DNA of 64,000 bases, taken from assembly GCA_020850315.1 (NCBI GenBank), contig JADZEY010000089.1, positions 1,022-65,021 on the forward strand, written 5' to 3'. The translations under genes were made by a program, and so were the position numbers. Source of the stretch: Armatimonadota bacterium (lineage in GTDB: Bacteria > Bacteroidota > Ignavibacteria > OLB7). Shown in pieces: positions 2,963 through 10,496 of the stretch. Position 1 is the first letter of the stretch; each line of letters opens with the position of its first letter. The notes beneath the pieces were generated by a model that worked only from the letters and a program-made list of their open reading frames with translations, made no database searches and was not told the origin of the DNA.

Positions 2963-5056
2963 TCAGCTTCCGGCGCTGATATCAGCATGGCGTTCCTCAC
3001 CTGCGGCGGTGTTCGATCCGATTGCTGTCGGTTGCGAAGCTGGTTCGCTGGCTCGGCTTCGGGTTCCGTTGGTTGGGTTTCCGCCGGCCATGCGTGCTTG
3101 CAGCATCCGTTTTACCTCAACTGGTGCCAATTCTTCGCCCCGCATCACTTGGTCAATTTCGTCGGCATCCAGGGTCTCGCGCTCAATCAGCAACTGCGAC
3201 ATCCGGTGCAGAATATCAATGTGTTCTTTCAAGATTCTGATTGCTGTGTGCATCCCTTCGTCAATGATGCGGCGGACTTCTTGGTCAATCATCTCGGCGG
3301 TGGATTCGCTTAAATCTTTGTGGACGGCGAAATCGCGCCCCAAGAAGACTTCCCCTTCGCTGGAGGAGTAGTTCACCGGACCAAGTTTTTCGGACATTCC
3401 AAGCTCGCACACCATCTGGCGGGCCATTTGGGTGATGACTTTGATATCCCCCTGCGCCCCCGATGTGTAGTTGCCAAAGATCAGCAGTTCGGCAGCGCGC
3501 CCGCCAAGCGCCATTGCAATTCGCGCCTCGAACCACTCGCGCGAGCGGGAGTGTTGGTCGTCGTTTGGCAGGAAAGCCGTTACGCCCAGGGCCCGGCCAC
3601 GCGGGATGATGGTCACTTTATGAAGCGGGTCGCCATGTGGCATGAACTTGCCAACAATCACGTGGCCCGATTCGTGGTAGGCGGTCATTTTCTTCTCTTC
3701 CTCGCTCATCACCATTGTGCGGCGTTCAAGGCCCATCATCAGCTTATCCTTTGCCATTTCGAAATCGTACATCGTCACGCGGTCGCCATTGCGGCGTGCG
3801 GCGTAGATGGCGGCTTCGTTGCACAGGTTGGCGATGTCGGCCCCGCTGAAACCAGGGGTTGATTTTGCAAGAGCAACAAGGTCAACGTTTTCGGCAAGGG
3901 GGATATTCCGGGAGTGGACTTTCAGGATTGCCTCGCGGCCACGGCGGTCGGGGCGGTCCACCACAATTTGGCGGTCGAATCGCCCCGGGCGCAGCAATGC
4001 GGGATCAAGAACGTCGGGGCGGTTGGTGGCGGCGATAATGATGACCCCGGTGTTCTGCTCGAACCCGTCCATTTCCACTAACAGTGCGTTCAGCGTCTGC
4101 TCACGTTCGTCGTGTCCGCCCCCCAGCCCTGCGCCACGTTGGCGGCCCACGGCATCAATTTCATCAATAAAGACGATGGCCGGCGCAACCTTCTTTGCCT
4201 GCTCGAACAAATCGCGAACGCGGCTTGCGCCAACGCCCACAAACATCTCCACAAAGTCAGCACCGGAGATGGAAAGGAACTGCACGCCAGCTTCGCCGGC
4301 AACAGCGCGGGCCATCAAGGTTTTTCCGGTTCCGGGGGGGCCAAGCAGAAGAACGCCACGTGGGATTTTTCCGCCAAGCCGTTGGAACTTTGCTGGTTCG
4401 CGAAGGAACTCCACAATTTCCTGAAGTTCTTCTTTTGCTTCATCGGCCCCGGCAACATCGGCAAACATGACGCGGGGTGAGTTTTCGCTCATCGTCCGGG
4501 CGCGCGATTTTCCGAAGGAGAAGATGCCTTTGGTTCCGGTGCCTTGCATCCGGCGCATTGCCCACACGAAAATGAAGATCAGGGCAACCCAGGGGAGGAA
4601 GGAGAAGAGGATCGTCCAGAGCGTACCGCTGTCGGATTCAACGTTGTATTTAATTCCGTTCTGAACCCAGGCTTGTTCGATTTCGCGATCCACCACAATC
4701 AGCCGTGTGGTGAAGGCTTTGGTTTTGATCTTGGCTCCATCTTTCCGTTCCACTTCGGTGATTTCCTTCAGGTCGCCACGGAACTCGTAGCCGCTTAGCT
4801 CGGACCCGACCACTTCGGCGCGGTCAATTTTGCTTTCGGTAAGCAGGCGTTGGTACTCGTTGAAGTTGACGGCAACGGGCTGGCCGGGGCCATTTTTCAG
4901 GATCATGTACAGGACAAGGAATCCGACGATGATTCCCATCCACATCGTCACGGTGCGCACAACGCTGCCGACATTTCCTTCGTCGTCGCCGTTCGGTTTC
5001 CGTGATGGCCGCGGTGGCCGGTTTGCTGGCTTCCGCTGGTTGCTATCGTTGCTCAT
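2963..5056 (-). CDS. ftsH: ATP-dependent zinc metalloprotease FtsH
   Basis: The sequence has a TM region, the AAA module ([20 protein letters not shown], Walker [15 protein letters not shown]) and the HEAGH-type zinc protease motif (HESGHVIVG). The start was trimmed from 5305 to the internal Met at 5056 (MSNDSNQRK...) to remove an unsupported N-terminal extension. Confidence 0.9.
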
Positions 5057-5087: not shown

Positions 5088-5651
5088 TTATGAAAAATCG
5101 TTTGCTGGTTGATAAAGAGCCACGGGATGCTGTTGTTGCGGTGGTGGTTCTTTGTCATCAAGGGCGTAGATGGCCGGAAGGTTTCTCCCTTGCTGCGCGA
5201 AATCAAGCCCGAACCCGACCACGAAGCTATCGGGGATTTCGATGCCGACGAACTCCGGTGGGATATTGCTCCGGAAGGCTTCCGGCTTGAACAGCAGTAC
5301 CGCAACCGCCACCGAAGCCGCCCCTTGCTGGGTTAGATATTCCCGAATTCGAGCAGAGGTTAGCCCGCTATCCACGATGTCTTCAACCACTATGACGTTT
5401 CTTCCGTGGATTTCAGTGCTGGGATAGGCTGTAAAAGTTAATGCCCCGGAAGATTGCATCCCTTGCCCGTAGCTGCTTACCCTGATGTAGTCAACCGAAA
5501 GTGGAATCGGCATCCCCCGGATAAGATCGGCGTGGAAGATTGCTGCTCCGTTCAGCACACACAGCATCAGCGGGTTCTTCTGGCGGTAATCTTCGGTAAG
5601 CTGAACGGCAATGCGGCGTATCTGCTGGCATAGTTCCTGGTTGGAGATCAT
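5088..5651 (-). CDS. hpt: Hypoxanthine-guanine phosphoribosyltransferase
   Basis: The PRPP-binding motif [13 protein letters not shown] is present. The gene lies in the conserved position between tilS and ftsH. The start was trimmed to [10 protein letters not shown]... (ATG complement at 5649-5651). Confidence 0.85.
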
Positions 5652-5682
5652 CAGCCTGAACCACCGCCCGCCAACGTTGACT

Positions 5683-8241
5683 CTATCGCTCACTTGTTCC
5701 CTCATCTTCGCCCTTGTGGCCCGCTGCGGTGGGGGGCTTGGGCGTTGCTGCTTTCCGTGTGGCTGTGCGCTTTGGCTGTGCTGGCGCGCTGCTTTGTGCG
5801 CTCTCCTCCACCTGTGGCTTGCTTGCTTTGGATGCCGTAGCTGCGGCCTTTTTTGCGGGGCGTTTGGCTGCTGGCTTGGGTTGTGCTTGTTCGGCCACTT
5901 CTGCTTTTACTGTTGGTGCCGCCGATTTTTTTGCCGCAGCTTTTTTAGCTGCTGCGGTTGTGGCTGGCAGCACAACGGCTGGTGTGCCCACGGTAGCCGC
6001 AGCCGCCGGAGGTGGGGAAGCGGGTGAGATAGATGGAGTTTTCATTGCTGGCCGATTTGCTGCCCCGACAGGCTCCGTTGGCGTTGGCTGTGCTATCGGG
6101 TTAGCTGGTCGCTGCTCTGCTGCTGCTGGCCGTTGTTGGCCGGGTTGCTCAGTTGGCCGTGGGTGCTGTTGTGCAGGTTGCTGCCGCTGATTCCCTTGCG
6201 GCTTGGCTTGCGCTGATCCAGATTGCTGGGTTGGCCGCTGTTGCTGCTGGCTACCCTGCTGTGGCCGCTGCTGTTGCTGTGCGGGTTGCTGGCGTTGCGG
6301 CTGATTTCCTTGTGGCTGCTTGGCTTGGGTTGATCCAGATTGCTGAGTTGGCCGCTGTTGCTGCGGCTGGCTACCCTGCGGTTGCTGTGGCCGCTGCTGC
6401 TGCTGTGCGGGTTGCTGGCGTTGCGGCTGATTTCCTTGCGGCTTGGCTTGGGTTGATCCAGATTGCTGAGTTGGCCGCTGTTGCTGCGGCTGGCTACCCT
6501 GTGGTTGCTGGGAGCGTGGCTGCTGCTGCTGGCTTCCTTGTGGGGTGGTCTGGGCAGTTCCGGCTGGCTGCTGTGGTCGCTGCTGGTTTCCCTGCTGTGG
6601 CTTCGGCTGTTGTTGTTGGGGTTGATTCCCTTGCGGCTTGGCTTGGGCTGTTCCTGTTGGTTGTTGCTGTTTTTGTCCCCCCTGCTGGCCGCGTTGTTGG
6701 GGTTGGTTTGCGGGCTTTGGTTGCTGTTGGGGCTTCTGCCCGTTGGTGGATTGCTGCCCGTTTGCTTGTTGCTGTGCGTTGGCTGGTTTTGCTTGCTCGG
6801 GCTGGCGGCGTAGCTGGATGAACTCAATCCGCAGCACATTTTTGGTCTCGGGGGTGATGCGATAGCGTTCGTCAAGCCTCATGCCGCATACCCAGATGAT
6901 GGTTTGGTCATCGGCCAGCACCAGCACGTCGCGCTTGGCATCCAACGCTATTTTTTCGTCAATCAGGAAATCGCTGATCTTTTTCTCACCATTCATCCCC
7001 AACGGCTGGAAGCGATCACCTTCGCGCCAGGAGCGCAAGGTTAATTTTTTCGGCAGACGGTCGGCATCAATAAACTCTATCGAGCGGTTGTTATTGAATT
7101 GGATATTGTTGTTTTTCATCCGTCGGGTTACCAGCCGCGCTTTCCCTGTCTCGGTGGTTGTTCCGGTGTCGAAACTCCGCTCGAACGGAATAAACGGCGG
7201 TGGATCGCGCCGGATCACCAACGTTTCGCGGTCGCGCAGGGCACTAATTCCATCAACGATTTCTGCTTTGCTTCCGGTTTCTTTCCAAACCAACCCCATT
7301 GTGCGTTCCACAGCCGAGTGTGGGATTGGTGGAAGCTCGAACCGTTGGCACACCACCCGCTGCACCAGCTCCGATTGAATTGCTGGCAGCAGGTGTTTTA
7401 GTTGGTTCAGGTTCAGCTCAACAACATCGTTGCTGCGTGGTTCGTTGTTGCGCGATGCTGTCACCTGCTCGATGGCGGTTCGGACCGAGTGGCCCAGGTG
7501 CTGCTCAACGCCCCGCATGATGTCGGCAGTGGAGTTCAGCGTGCTGACAATGCTTGGGTTGAACTGCTGCAACGCCGGCAGCAGTTCTTGGCGGACGCGA
7601 TTGCGGAGGAACCGTGTGTTCTGGTTGGACTCATCCTCGCGCCATTGAATCCCTGCTTGCTGCACAAATTCCCGAATTTCACTTCTTCCGGCCCAGAGCA
7701 ACGGGCGGGCAAGGATCAGCCCACGCCCCAACGAGCGGACGGGGGGGATTCCGGCAAGCCCGGTAACGCCGCTTCCGCGAAGCAGGTTCATCAACAACGT
7801 CTCGGCGTTGTCGTCGGCGGTGTGGCCTGTTAGTATAATGGAGTATCCGTGGCGGCGGGCAACGCGCTCCAGAAATTGGTATCGGGCTTTGCGTGCGGCA
7901 TCTTCCAGCGAAAGTTTTTGCTCGGTAGCAAGGCGTTGGACTTCGGCCCGTCCGATAAAAATTTTCAATCCCCGCTCGCGTGCTTGCTCGTTGACGAACG
8001 CGGCATCCTTGCGCGATTCCTCGCCGCGCAATTCGTGGTCAAAGTGGGCAATGCCAACCTGAAGTTTCAGCAGGGGAGCAAGCCGCGAGACCATTTCCAG
8101 CAGTGCCATGGAGTCGGCACCGCCGCTAACGGCAATCAGCACCGATTCTTTTCCAAGCAGCATATCGTGCTTGCGAACGTAGGCCCGCATTTTCTGCTGG
8201 CATTTCTCAACAAACGTAGATGTTAGAATCATAAGCCGCAC
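5683..8241 (-). CDS. tilS: tRNA(Ile)-lysidine synthetase TilS fused to a ~390-aa low-complexity C-terminal extension. The extension has Gln/Pro-rich tandem repeats followed by a Lys/Ala-rich basic tail.
   Basis: The N-terminal ~460 aa have the PP-loop SGGADS, the HFDHELRGEES... region and a TilS C-terminal domain ending ...RIEFIQL. The same frame then continues without a stop through ~41-aa repeats (QQRPTQQSGSTQAKPQGNQPQRQQPAQQQQRPQQPQGSQPQ), a short Pro/Ala-rich segment, and an AAKKAAAKKSAAPTVK...KRPAKKAAATASK tail. The start is GTG at 8241 or ATG at 8232. Confidence 0.75.
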   Translation of the reverse strand: MRLMILTSTFVEKCQQKMRAYVRKHDMLLGKESVLIAVSGGADSMALLEMVSRLAPLLKLQVGIAHFDHELRGEESRKDAAFVNEQARERGLKIFIGRAEVQRLATEQKLSLEDAARKARYQFLERVARRHGYSIILTGHTADDNAETLLMNLLRGSGVTGLAGIPPVRSLGRGLILARPLLWAGRSEIREFVQQAGIQWREDESNQNTRFLRNRVRQELLPALQQFNPSIVSTLNSTADIMRGVEQHLGHSVRTAIEQVTASRNNEPRSNDVVELNLNQLKHLLPAIQSELVQRVVCQRFELPPIPHSAVERTMGLVWKETGSKAEIVDGISALRDRETLVIRRDPPPFIPFERSFDTGTTTETGKARLVTRRMKNNNIQFNNNRSIEFIDADRLPKKLTLRSWREGDRFQPLGMNGEKKISDFLIDEKIALDAKRDVLVLADDQTIIWVCGMRLDERYRITPETKNVLRIEFIQLRRQPEQAKPANAQQQANGQQSTNGQKPQQQPKPANQPQQRGQQGGQKQQQPTGTAQAKPQGNQPQQQQPKPQQGNQQRPQQPAGTAQTTPQGSQQQQPRSQQPQGSQPQQQRPTQQSGSTQAKPQGNQPQRQQPAQQQQRPQQPQGSQPQQQRPTQQSGSTQAKQPQGNQPQRQQPAQQQQRPQQGSQQQQRPTQQSGSAQAKPQGNQRQQPAQQHPRPTEQPGQQRPAAAEQRPANPIAQPTPTEPVGAANRPAMKTPSISPASPPPAAAATVGTPAVVLPATTAAAKKAAAKKSAAPTVKAEVAEQAQPKPAAKRPAKKAAATASKASKPQVEESAQSSAPAQPKRTATRKAATPKPPTAAGHKGEDEGTSER
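6150..6570. repeat. Tandem direct repeat of about 3.3 near-identical copies, period 117-123 bp, inside the tilS 3' extension
   Basis: Repeat units begin at about 6202, 6319 and 6442 with CTTGGCTTGGGTTGATCCAGATTGCTGAGTTGGCCGCTGTTGCTGCGGCTGGCTACCCTG.... The first copy has a 6-bp deletion. The repeats are in frame, so the protein repeats are 39-41 aa long. Confidence 0.85.
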
Positions 8242-9617: not shown

Positions 9618-10496
9618 ATGGCTTCACTTGAGATCGAAGATCTTCTGAACGCCGGTGCCCACTTCGGGCACCTGACCCGCCGCTGGAATCCCCAGATGCG
9701 CCAGTACATTTTTATGGAGCGCAACGGCATCCACATCATTGACCTGAAAAAAACCCAAGTTCTGGTTGATGATGCCCGCAACGCTGCCGAGCGAATCGCT
9801 GCCGAAGGGAAGCGCATCTTGTTCGTCGGCACCAAAAAGCAGGCCCGCGATGTGGTCCGCAACGAAGCGTCGCGCATTGGCGCAAACTTTGTAAGCGAAC
9901 GCTGGCTTGGCGGAATGCTTACCAACTTCGCCACCATCCGCAAATCAATCAAGCGGCTGAAGGATATTGAGAAGATGGAGGGGGACGGCACAATCGAAAA
10001 TTACACCAAGAAAGAGCGACTGATGATTAGCCGCGAAAAAGAACGCTTGGTGCGTGTGCTTGGTGGCATTGCCGACATGAACCGGCTGCCGGGCGCGCTC
10101 TACATCGTGGACATTAAAAAAGAACACCTTGCGGTGAAAGAAGCCAAAACCCTTGGCATTCCGGTGATCGCTATTGTTGACACCAACACCGACCCGCGCG
10201 ACATTGACTTCCCAATCCCCGCCAACGACGACTCGCTGAAAACCGTTGCCCTTATCACCAAAGTCATTGCCGACGGCGTTGCAATGGGCCGCGAAGCCAG
10301 CAAAGCCTTGATGGCCGAAGAAGGCGCAACCGACGATCGTGAAATGAAAGAACAGGGGAAAGAGGGGGCAGGCGACGATCCACAAGCACGCCGCCGGACT
10401 CGCTCGCGCCGTGGAAGCGGCGGTGGTGGCCGTCGCGACGAACAGCGTGGTGGCAGCGATGCCCCAGCTGCCGCCGCACCAGCCAGCGGTGAGTAA
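9618..10496 (+). CDS. rpsB: 30S ribosomal protein S2 with an acidic, Gly/Arg-rich C-terminal extension
   Basis: [27 protein letters not shown]... is the S2 family N-terminus, and VDTNTDP is also present. The protein is 292 aa. Confidence 0.92.

Follow-up and report, generated by a model that had tools for sequence, protein, structure and literature searches.

A tRNA(Ile)-lysidine synthetase with a long, predicted disordered C-terminal extension in a Kapabacteria-like lineage

The stretch of DNA analysed here, hereafter the window, comprises 64 kb (positions 1-64000) of contig JADZEY010000089.1 from a metagenome-assembled genome (MAG; GCA_020850315.1). Its reverse strand carries tilS, the gene of tRNA(Ile)-lysidine synthetase, at 5683..8241, followed by hpt and ftsH. 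TilS is essential and sets which codon is read by tRNA(Ile2) as well as the amino-acid identity of this tRNA. To our knowledge, work on TilS has so far dealt only with compact enzymes of about 320-470 aa. Read from its GTG start, the full tilS open reading frame (ORF) specifies a protein of 852 aa. Translation may alternatively begin at the ATG at 8232, used for the same protein in NCBI (MCC7438858.1, 849 aa, annotated 'tRNA lysidine(34) synthetase TilS'), or at the ATG at 8190 (MRAYV), which is the choice of gene callers in relatives. The enzyme core occupies 6808..8241 (residues 1-478) and is followed in the same frame by a C-terminal extension at 5686..6807 (residues 479-852). The initial annotation of this DNA had proposed that the TilS frame continues past the normal C-terminus without a stop, and this is borne out by the uninterrupted ORF, by the conservation of the junction and by the recurrence of the same architecture in independent assemblies. 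The extension is indeed long; at 374 aa it falls slightly short of the approximately 390 residues proposed there. Taking the evidence described below together, we regard it as very probable that the extension is real, translated and disordered.

The N-terminal part of the protein has all hallmarks of canonical type-I TilS, as represented by the enzymes of Geobacillus kaustophilus (3a2k) and Escherichia coli (TilS/MesJ, 1ni5), with which it shares the PP-loop N-terminal domain, the TilS_C domain and the invariant residues. The PP-loop ATP-binding domain (7585..8142, residues 34-219) is recognised by PF01171 with an E-value of 2.4e-54 and by TIGR02432 with 200 bits against a cut-off of 93.6. It contains the motif SGGADS at residues 39-44 (8110-8127), which conforms to the SGGxDS signature. 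The substrate-binding C-terminal domain TilS_C (6835..7044, residues 400-469) is matched by PF11734 over residues 400-469 (39.7 bits, cut-off 22) and by TIGR02433 over residues 400-445 (45.6 bits, cut-off 20.2). Residues 3-441 of the 464-aa Geobacillus TilS structure (3a2k_A) pair with residues 16-456 of the window protein (E = 7.8e-45). Canonical TilS ends approximately 23 residues past the aligned region, whereas the window TilS adds 374 disordered residues; judging from where the alignment ends, a normal TilS would be expected to terminate near residue 479. Every column that is invariant across an alignment of 35 relatives is kept, so that all family-invariant residues are present. By each testable sequence and structure criterion the window protein is thus predicted to be a bona fide TilS, with a core that is apparently complete and active. 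A bifunctional TilS/HprT fusion was also considered and rejected, since hpt is a separate ORF that lies in a different frame, with the tilS stop codon in between.

The extension is composed of several distinct segments. The Q/P-rich repeat region (6097..6807, residues 479-715; Q 41%, P 16%) is adjacent to the core and is the most variable part of the extension among relatives. It includes two older, degenerate repeat units (6487..6672, approximately residues 524-585), a 41-aa unit 1 (6364..6486; QQQRPTQQSGSTQAKPQGNQPQRQQPAQQQQRPQQPQGSQP), a near-identical 39-aa unit 2 (6247..6363) and a partial unit 3 of about 28 aa (6163..6246), so that the 3.3 or so copies of 39-41 aa counted in the initial annotation are a fair approximation. 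Tandem Repeats Finder reports a period of 123 nt with 2.2-2.7 copies and an 86-92% match, and the DNA of the copies is 92-97% identical. The next segment is rich in P, A and T (5917..6096, residues 716-775). It contains a conserved ANRPA motif (region 6040-6060) and ends with the first basic cluster, AAKKAAAKK (5926-5952). The distal tail (5686..5916, residues 776-852), exemplified by the peptide AEVAEQAQPKPAAK, is alignable with relatives. It carries two more basic clusters, KRPAKK (5848-5865) and PKRTATRK (5752-5775), and closes with the acidic end GEDEGTSER (5686-5712). The Pro/Ala segment and the succession AAKKAAAKK...KRPAKK...PKRTATRK are therefore present as originally described.

The composition of the extension is strongly biased, with 28% Q, 16% P, 16% A and 5% R. 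There are 45 basic versus 12 acidic residues, giving a net charge of +33 and a charged fraction of 0.15, and no F, Y or W occurs anywhere. The sense strand consists of 34% A, 37% C, 25% G and 5% T (C/G ratio 1.48). The glutamine codons CAA and CAG are used 46:57 in the extension versus 91:119 in the other genes of the window, a mix close enough to indicate that the extension is not a pure trinucleotide run. Stop codons are absent from the coding frame across the whole extension, whereas each of the other five frames has 3-8 of them. Being the sole stop-free frame, and one conserved in relatives, the TilS frame is favoured over the other-frame and antisense ORFs that overlap the repeats, namely 6093..6875 on the reverse strand and 6153..6821, 6463..6813 and 5714..6190 on the forward strand. 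The latter were rejected as probably spurious by-products of the T-poor composition, which could mislead gene callers. Among approximately 55 large ORFs of the window, low-complexity tails are found only in tilS and in one other gene, that of ribosomal protein S2 (53 aa), and the tilS tail is far beyond chance expectation for these ORFs.

AlphaFold2, run with a 35-sequence alignment, separates the two parts of the protein clearly. Averaged in 10-residue blocks, the predicted local distance difference test score (pLDDT) exceeds 90 across most of residues 11-470 and drops to 36-49 in residues 480-852, where no secondary structure is predicted. Sequence entropy of the extension is below 3 bits in 40-aa windows, and no Pfam or NCBIfam model matches it at E <= 0.1. 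According to the model the extension is an intrinsically disordered region (IDR), which agrees with the disorder anticipated by the initial annotation. An exhaustive phmmer search with the 137-aa tail against 1.84 billion representatives, a search of low power, returned no matches, and a word-indexed search with the whole extension also returned none, missing even the protein of the query itself. These negatives say little about homology because low-complexity filtering removes all power.

The fusion is not confined to the window. Comparison of TilS lengths in relatives, which the initial annotation had recommended, recovered fused proteins of 876, 895 and 902 aa (P0002, P0003 and P0004, respectively) from independent public assemblies, with cores 88-92% identical to that of the window. 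Assembly of four different SRA runs yielded one and the same 895-aa P0003 sequence. More distant extended TilS proteins are encoded on a 795-kb contig (P0026) and on a 5.46-Mb contig (P0043). The junction between core and extension, ...RIEFIQLRRQPEQAKP..., is conserved in all four close relatives, and so is the tail in P0002, P0003 and P0004. In the nearest extension-less orthologue, from a Kapaibacteriota MAG (L007), a 474-aa tilS directly precedes hpt and ftsH, and no stand-alone low-complexity gene is present at this tilS-hpt-ftsH locus. The initial annotation had allowed that the repeats might belong to a separate downstream gene, a reading not supported by this gene order. An assembly collapse or frameshift joining TilS to such a gene might be entertained because the exact window protein comes from one contig and repeats are prone to mis-assembly. 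However, the fusion recurs in independent assemblies, with one sequence identical in four samples and two carriers on very long contigs. Together with the conserved junction and the gene order of L007, this effectively excludes both the artefact and the separate-gene readings.

Substitution patterns point in the same direction. For the closest pair of loci, L001 and L003, the ratio of nonsynonymous to synonymous substitution rates (dN/dS) amounts to 0.078 for the core, 0.27 for the Q-rich region and 0.19 for the tail, while dS is approximately 0.2 and equal in core and extension. All nine indels that distinguish the two sequences are multiples of three, ranging from 3 to 141 nt. Judged from these alignments, the extension is under purifying selection and looks translated.

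The extension appears to consist of two layers that evolve differently. Between the four close relatives, the Q-rich spacer can hardly be aligned (39-47% amino acid identity, many indels). The distal part of about 130 aa keeps, in the same relatives, the ANRPA motif, a KK(K)A cluster, A(A/T)KRP and KPKR-x3-RK, followed by the short acidic end. Distant extended TilS proteins (P0015, P0018-P0020 and P0026) have unlike spacers, yet they too close with a basic patch and, after it, a short end that is acidic or neutral. K and R make up 15% of the last 137 aa of the window protein and 15-19% across the tail (K 12-14%), and the densest 30-aa stretch reaches 27%; the basic residues are grouped in three isolated clusters with no regular repeat. 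As a separate observation, the tripeptide RAP lies beside basic residues within the last 35 residues of seven of the 20 C-extended TilS proteins (P0002, P0015, P0018-P0020, P0044 and P0058; 13-32 residues from the C-terminus), versus 0.59 expected from composition-preserving shuffles, a pattern that was chosen post hoc and counted in phylogenetically non-independent proteins. RAP may be a short linear motif and is only a lead. The window tail has KRTATRK at the corresponding position.

Long low-complexity extensions are found in about 40 of the best 120 TilS relatives, 28 of them N-terminal and 25 C-terminal, with some proteins carrying both; this count may be inflated since candidates were collected via words shared with a low-complexity query. 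As a background, we used 36 TilS proteins of related phyla, among the matches listed in a scan of a genome collection with a generic TilS motif. None of these 36 has a C-terminal extension longer than 26 aa, with the window's species and the extension-bearing relatives lying outside the 80 loci listed in that scan. Such an appendage had been called very unusual, which is correct for the background sample but too strong for the closest relatives. In a neighbour-joining tree of TilS cores, the C-extended proteins fall into two groups at the base of a Kapabacteria-like clade, one containing the window and P0002-P0005 and the other P0015, P0018-P0020 and P0026. A large group of 474-aa TilS proteins (P0006-P0023) is nested beside both. 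Such a topology is compatible with a single early gain and a subsequent loss, or with two independent gains, as far as the core phylogeny can be read.

Extensions persist even between lineages that share only about 55% identity in the core, and their composition differs from group to group: it is rich in Q, P and A in the window, in G, Q, R and E in P0005, and in S, T and K in P0026. The extensions of P0015 and P0018-P0020 are R/D/E-rich polyampholytes with a charged fraction of 0.5-0.6 and a net charge near 0. Nearly all TilS extensions are net positive or neutral. A separate clade, with cores 33-38% identical, has K-rich N-terminal extensions. One protein, P0043 (L089, 4001-7588), bears a 725-aa lysine-rich N-terminal extension with long repeats that include AT-hook-like RKRPGRPKK units; its gene is followed by hpt, without ftsH after it. 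Repeat numbers also differ between close relatives. The relatives of the window differ by in-frame gains and losses of repeat units. A related 90%-identity cluster (representative P0044) has members of 906-932 aa, and P0044 and its close relative P0051 have unequal numbers of QKPQPKEQ-type repeats, suggesting that repeat-number variation is ongoing. Along with the 92-97% identity of the DNA copies, these data agree with the earlier view that the repeats are recent and length-variable. No cultured carrier of an extended TilS was identified among the relatives found. Extended TilS proteins are already deposited, yet unremarked; none of the papers covered by our literature search reports a disordered TilS extension.

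Several known proteins resemble the window TilS in part. SSB combines a disordered linker with an acidic tip, and FtsZ combines a C-terminal linker with a conserved C-terminal peptide. The layout common to these proteins and TilS is a folded core, a variable P/Q-rich linker and a better-conserved short terminal segment, and the core-linker-tip proteins SSB and FtsZ may be regarded as its nearest architectural analogues. The terminal segment of TilS is basic, whereas the tips of SSB and FtsZ are acidic or hydrophobic. Eukaryotic class II aminoacyl-tRNA synthetases have lysine-rich appended domains thought to add non-specific tRNA affinity; these are short N-terminal amphipathic helices, unlike the long C-terminal extension of TilS, in which no helix is predicted. 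Hc1, AlgP and the C-terminal domain of HupB are bacterial histone-H1-like proteins with K/A/P repeats. The TilS tail is similar to them in local K/A/P-rich wording (AAKKAAAKK, KRPAKKAA), and the initial annotation had called it histone-H1-like. However, the tail has only 12-14% K, acidic residues throughout and no long regular repeat, and no linker-histone or bacterial H1-like model of Pfam or NCBIfam matches it at E <= 0.1. The label is thus overstated, given 15% K+R in the last 137 aa and a maximum of 27% per 30 aa, and membership of the H1-like family was rejected on the grounds of model matches, lysine density and repeat regularity.

Conceptually, the closest precedent is Rho, which in Bacteroides and other bacteria carries a lineage-specific IDR (PMC10284900, PMC11347177, PMC13269538). 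Rho and TilS are both essential, conserved RNA-handling proteins that in some Bacteroidota-related lineages gained a long, compositionally biased disordered region that is sequence-diverse between species. The extra regions in the Rho survey are described as insertions, whereas that of the window TilS is a C-terminal tail, and phase separation has been demonstrated for Rho; the TilS tail is Q/P/A-rich, with few charges and no aromatic residues. Actinobacterial topoisomerase I resembles TilS in having a basic low-complexity C-terminal tail on a nucleic-acid enzyme. The tail of TopA is described as a long stretch of lysine repeats (PMC5714199), whereas in TilS a spacer of about 240 aa precedes three short basic clusters.

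The explanation that best combines these observations, and which we favour only tentatively, is a translated, lineage-specific TilS variant with a disordered linker and a basic, polyanion-capturing tail. The first layer would be the long Q/P-rich spacer, probably evolving fast through replication slippage of units of about 120 nt and serving as a flexible hydrophilic linker. The second would be the distal tail, about 130 aa long and better conserved, with its three short basic clusters and short acidic end. The net-positive tail would make weak, non-specific electrostatic contacts with a polyanion, most likely RNA in the form of tRNA or ribosomes. RNA is the most economical target since the extension begins directly after the substrate-binding TilS_C domain. 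In this way TilS would be concentrated close to its substrate, tRNA(Ile2). In Streptomyces TopA, lysine repeats stabilise the enzyme-nucleic-acid complex (PMC5714199), and low-complexity regions rich in Arg and Lys are over-represented among bacterial RNA- and DNA-binding proteins (PMC6821194). By analogy with these cases, a function of the extension as a tether to RNA or another polyanion is conceivable, though doubtful enough to be offered as a suggestion.

A number of points weigh against such a capturing tail. The tail is modestly basic (15-19% K+R), with eight acidic residues in its last 77 aa. Sister lineages manage with a 474-aa TilS, which indicates that the extension is dispensable for catalysis. 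If the tail compensated for a less basic core, extended cores should be less basic, yet their mean net charge is +7.0 versus +5.1 in proteins without extension. The R/D/E-rich extensions of relatives are close to neutral in net charge and fall outside a simple polycation model. As to a shared module, the homology searches made with the extension carry no weight in either direction. The exact window protein is on record from a single MAG contig, so that its repeat copy number could be mis-assembled. Finally, RNA binding by the tail is argued from analogy with other basic tails.

The alternative that deserves most attention is that the extension is a tolerated product of slippage, translated but without specific function, because a hydrophilic, non-aggregating tail would be nearly neutral. 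Its constraint would then reflect the avoidance of hydrophobic or frameshifted variants and the preservation of the tilS-hpt overlap. In this way one could explain why the Q-rich region is 39-47% identical where the core is 88-92% identical, why extension composition is radically unlike between relatives and why the nearest sister clade and the 36 sampled reference TilS, all among the matches listed, lack a C-terminal extension; the near-identical DNA repeats indicate that slippage is ongoing. However, dN/dS values of 0.19-0.27 are far from 1, the frame is preserved in nine of nine indels, the extension persists at about 55% core identity with conserved basic terminal patches, and some 1.1 kb of extra translated sequence is hard to retain for nothing. 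We consider this explanation somewhat unlikely.

By analogy with Rho of Bacteroides thetaiotaomicron, the extension might instead be a condensate-forming or regulatory IDR that undergoes stress-dependent phase separation, alone or with RNA, and modulates the activity or localisation of TilS. The Bacteroidota precedent of a lineage-specific IDR on an essential RNA-handling protein (PMC10284900, PMC13269538, PMC11347177), the polyampholyte extensions of relatives (R/D/E-rich, charged fraction 0.5-0.6) and the long, multivalent, net-positive character of the window extension are compatible with this possibility, but a sequence with no aromatics, 5% R, 16% P and a charged fraction of 0.15 is a poor candidate for self-association, and we find such a role improbable. 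Less probable still is a solubility or chaperone-sparing tail ('entropic bristle') that would prevent a TilS prone to aggregation from coming out of solution. In Shewanella, TilS is reported to be an obligate client of Hsp90 (bioRxiv 10.1101/2025.07.01.662558), and length, hydrophilicity and disorder are the sole properties common to all extensions; the conserved basic clusters, however, are left unexplained. A function at the mRNA level, in which an unstructured, T-depleted, C>G tract of 1.1 kb would serve as a Rho-loading or translation-speed sensor controlling hpt-ftsH, is very hard to credit. It would accommodate the 5% T and C/G ratio of 1.48 on the sense strand and the position of the tract within the conserved tilS-hpt-ftsH order, where the tilS and hpt coding regions overlap. 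Yet relatives with R/D/E-rich extensions would have quite another base composition in this tract, constraint is visible at the protein level, and the sense strand has no terminator-like site within the extension, with a regional count not above that in shuffles. More generally, promoter and terminator predictions in the extension gave nothing beyond the numbers in shuffles.

Returning to a linker with a conserved basic end, that end could also act as a docking peptide and place TilS on ribosomes, on RNA-rich condensates or on another partner, a possibility that we regard as speculative and rather improbable. Were it true, the cell would organise the formation of lysidine on the rare tRNA(Ile2) in space or regulate it in response to stress, and TilS would be the first tRNA-modification enzyme known with a Rho-like regulatory IDR. 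The module would then have been gained early in a Kapabacteria-like lineage and have arisen anew at the N-terminus in a further Bacteroidota-related clade. Whatever their role, whole lineages appear to keep disordered appendages of 200-700 residues on TilS under purifying selection, and the extension of the window protein is of exceptional size among tRNA-modification enzymes. Spacers are replaced completely and the basic end persists, which suggests a layer of substrate capture, localisation or regulation that has not been recognised. TilS would then be the second housekeeping RNA protein, after Rho, with a recruited IDR in Bacteroidota-related lineages, and its extensions may offer a natural series of sequence-diverse linkers for studying the roles of IDRs in bacteria.

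Downstream of tilS, hpt (hypoxanthine phosphoribosyltransferase; 5088..5705, reverse strand) is followed by ftsH (2963..5056, reverse strand; likely start at 5056). The tilS-hpt-ftsH order is conserved, including in the close relatives with fused TilS, and divergent rplM-rpsI genes lie upstream of tilS. The ATG of hpt overlaps the 3' end of tilS in another frame; the overlap measures 23 nt in the window (5683-5705), 8 nt in L001 (8278-8285) and 4 nt in L002 (8706-8709). Its arrangement suggests translational coupling, and it means that the start region of hpt places an additional constraint on the final few codons of tilS. Rfam models at gathering thresholds gave no match in the whole window (1-64000), so that no tRNA, rRNA or riboswitch was detected. 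The source MAG is labelled 'Armatimonadetes bacterium' by NCBI. The nearest named relatives of both TilS and FtsH are Kapabacteria/Kapaibacteriota, followed by Ignavibacteria- and Chlorobi-labelled genomes, and judging from these affinities the Armatimonadetes label is probably wrong. The N-terminal basic peptide of FtsH is kept in the Kapaibacteriota orthologue (L007, 6188-8275), the two proteins being 74% identical overall. A proteome-wide habit of low-complexity tails was also considered and rejected, because besides TilS only S2 has one among the large ORFs of the window. This S2 gene (9618-10496, forward strand) encodes an R/G/D/E-rich C-terminal tail at approximately 10335-10493, and its orthologues in relatives L001-L003 are 305-315 aa long.

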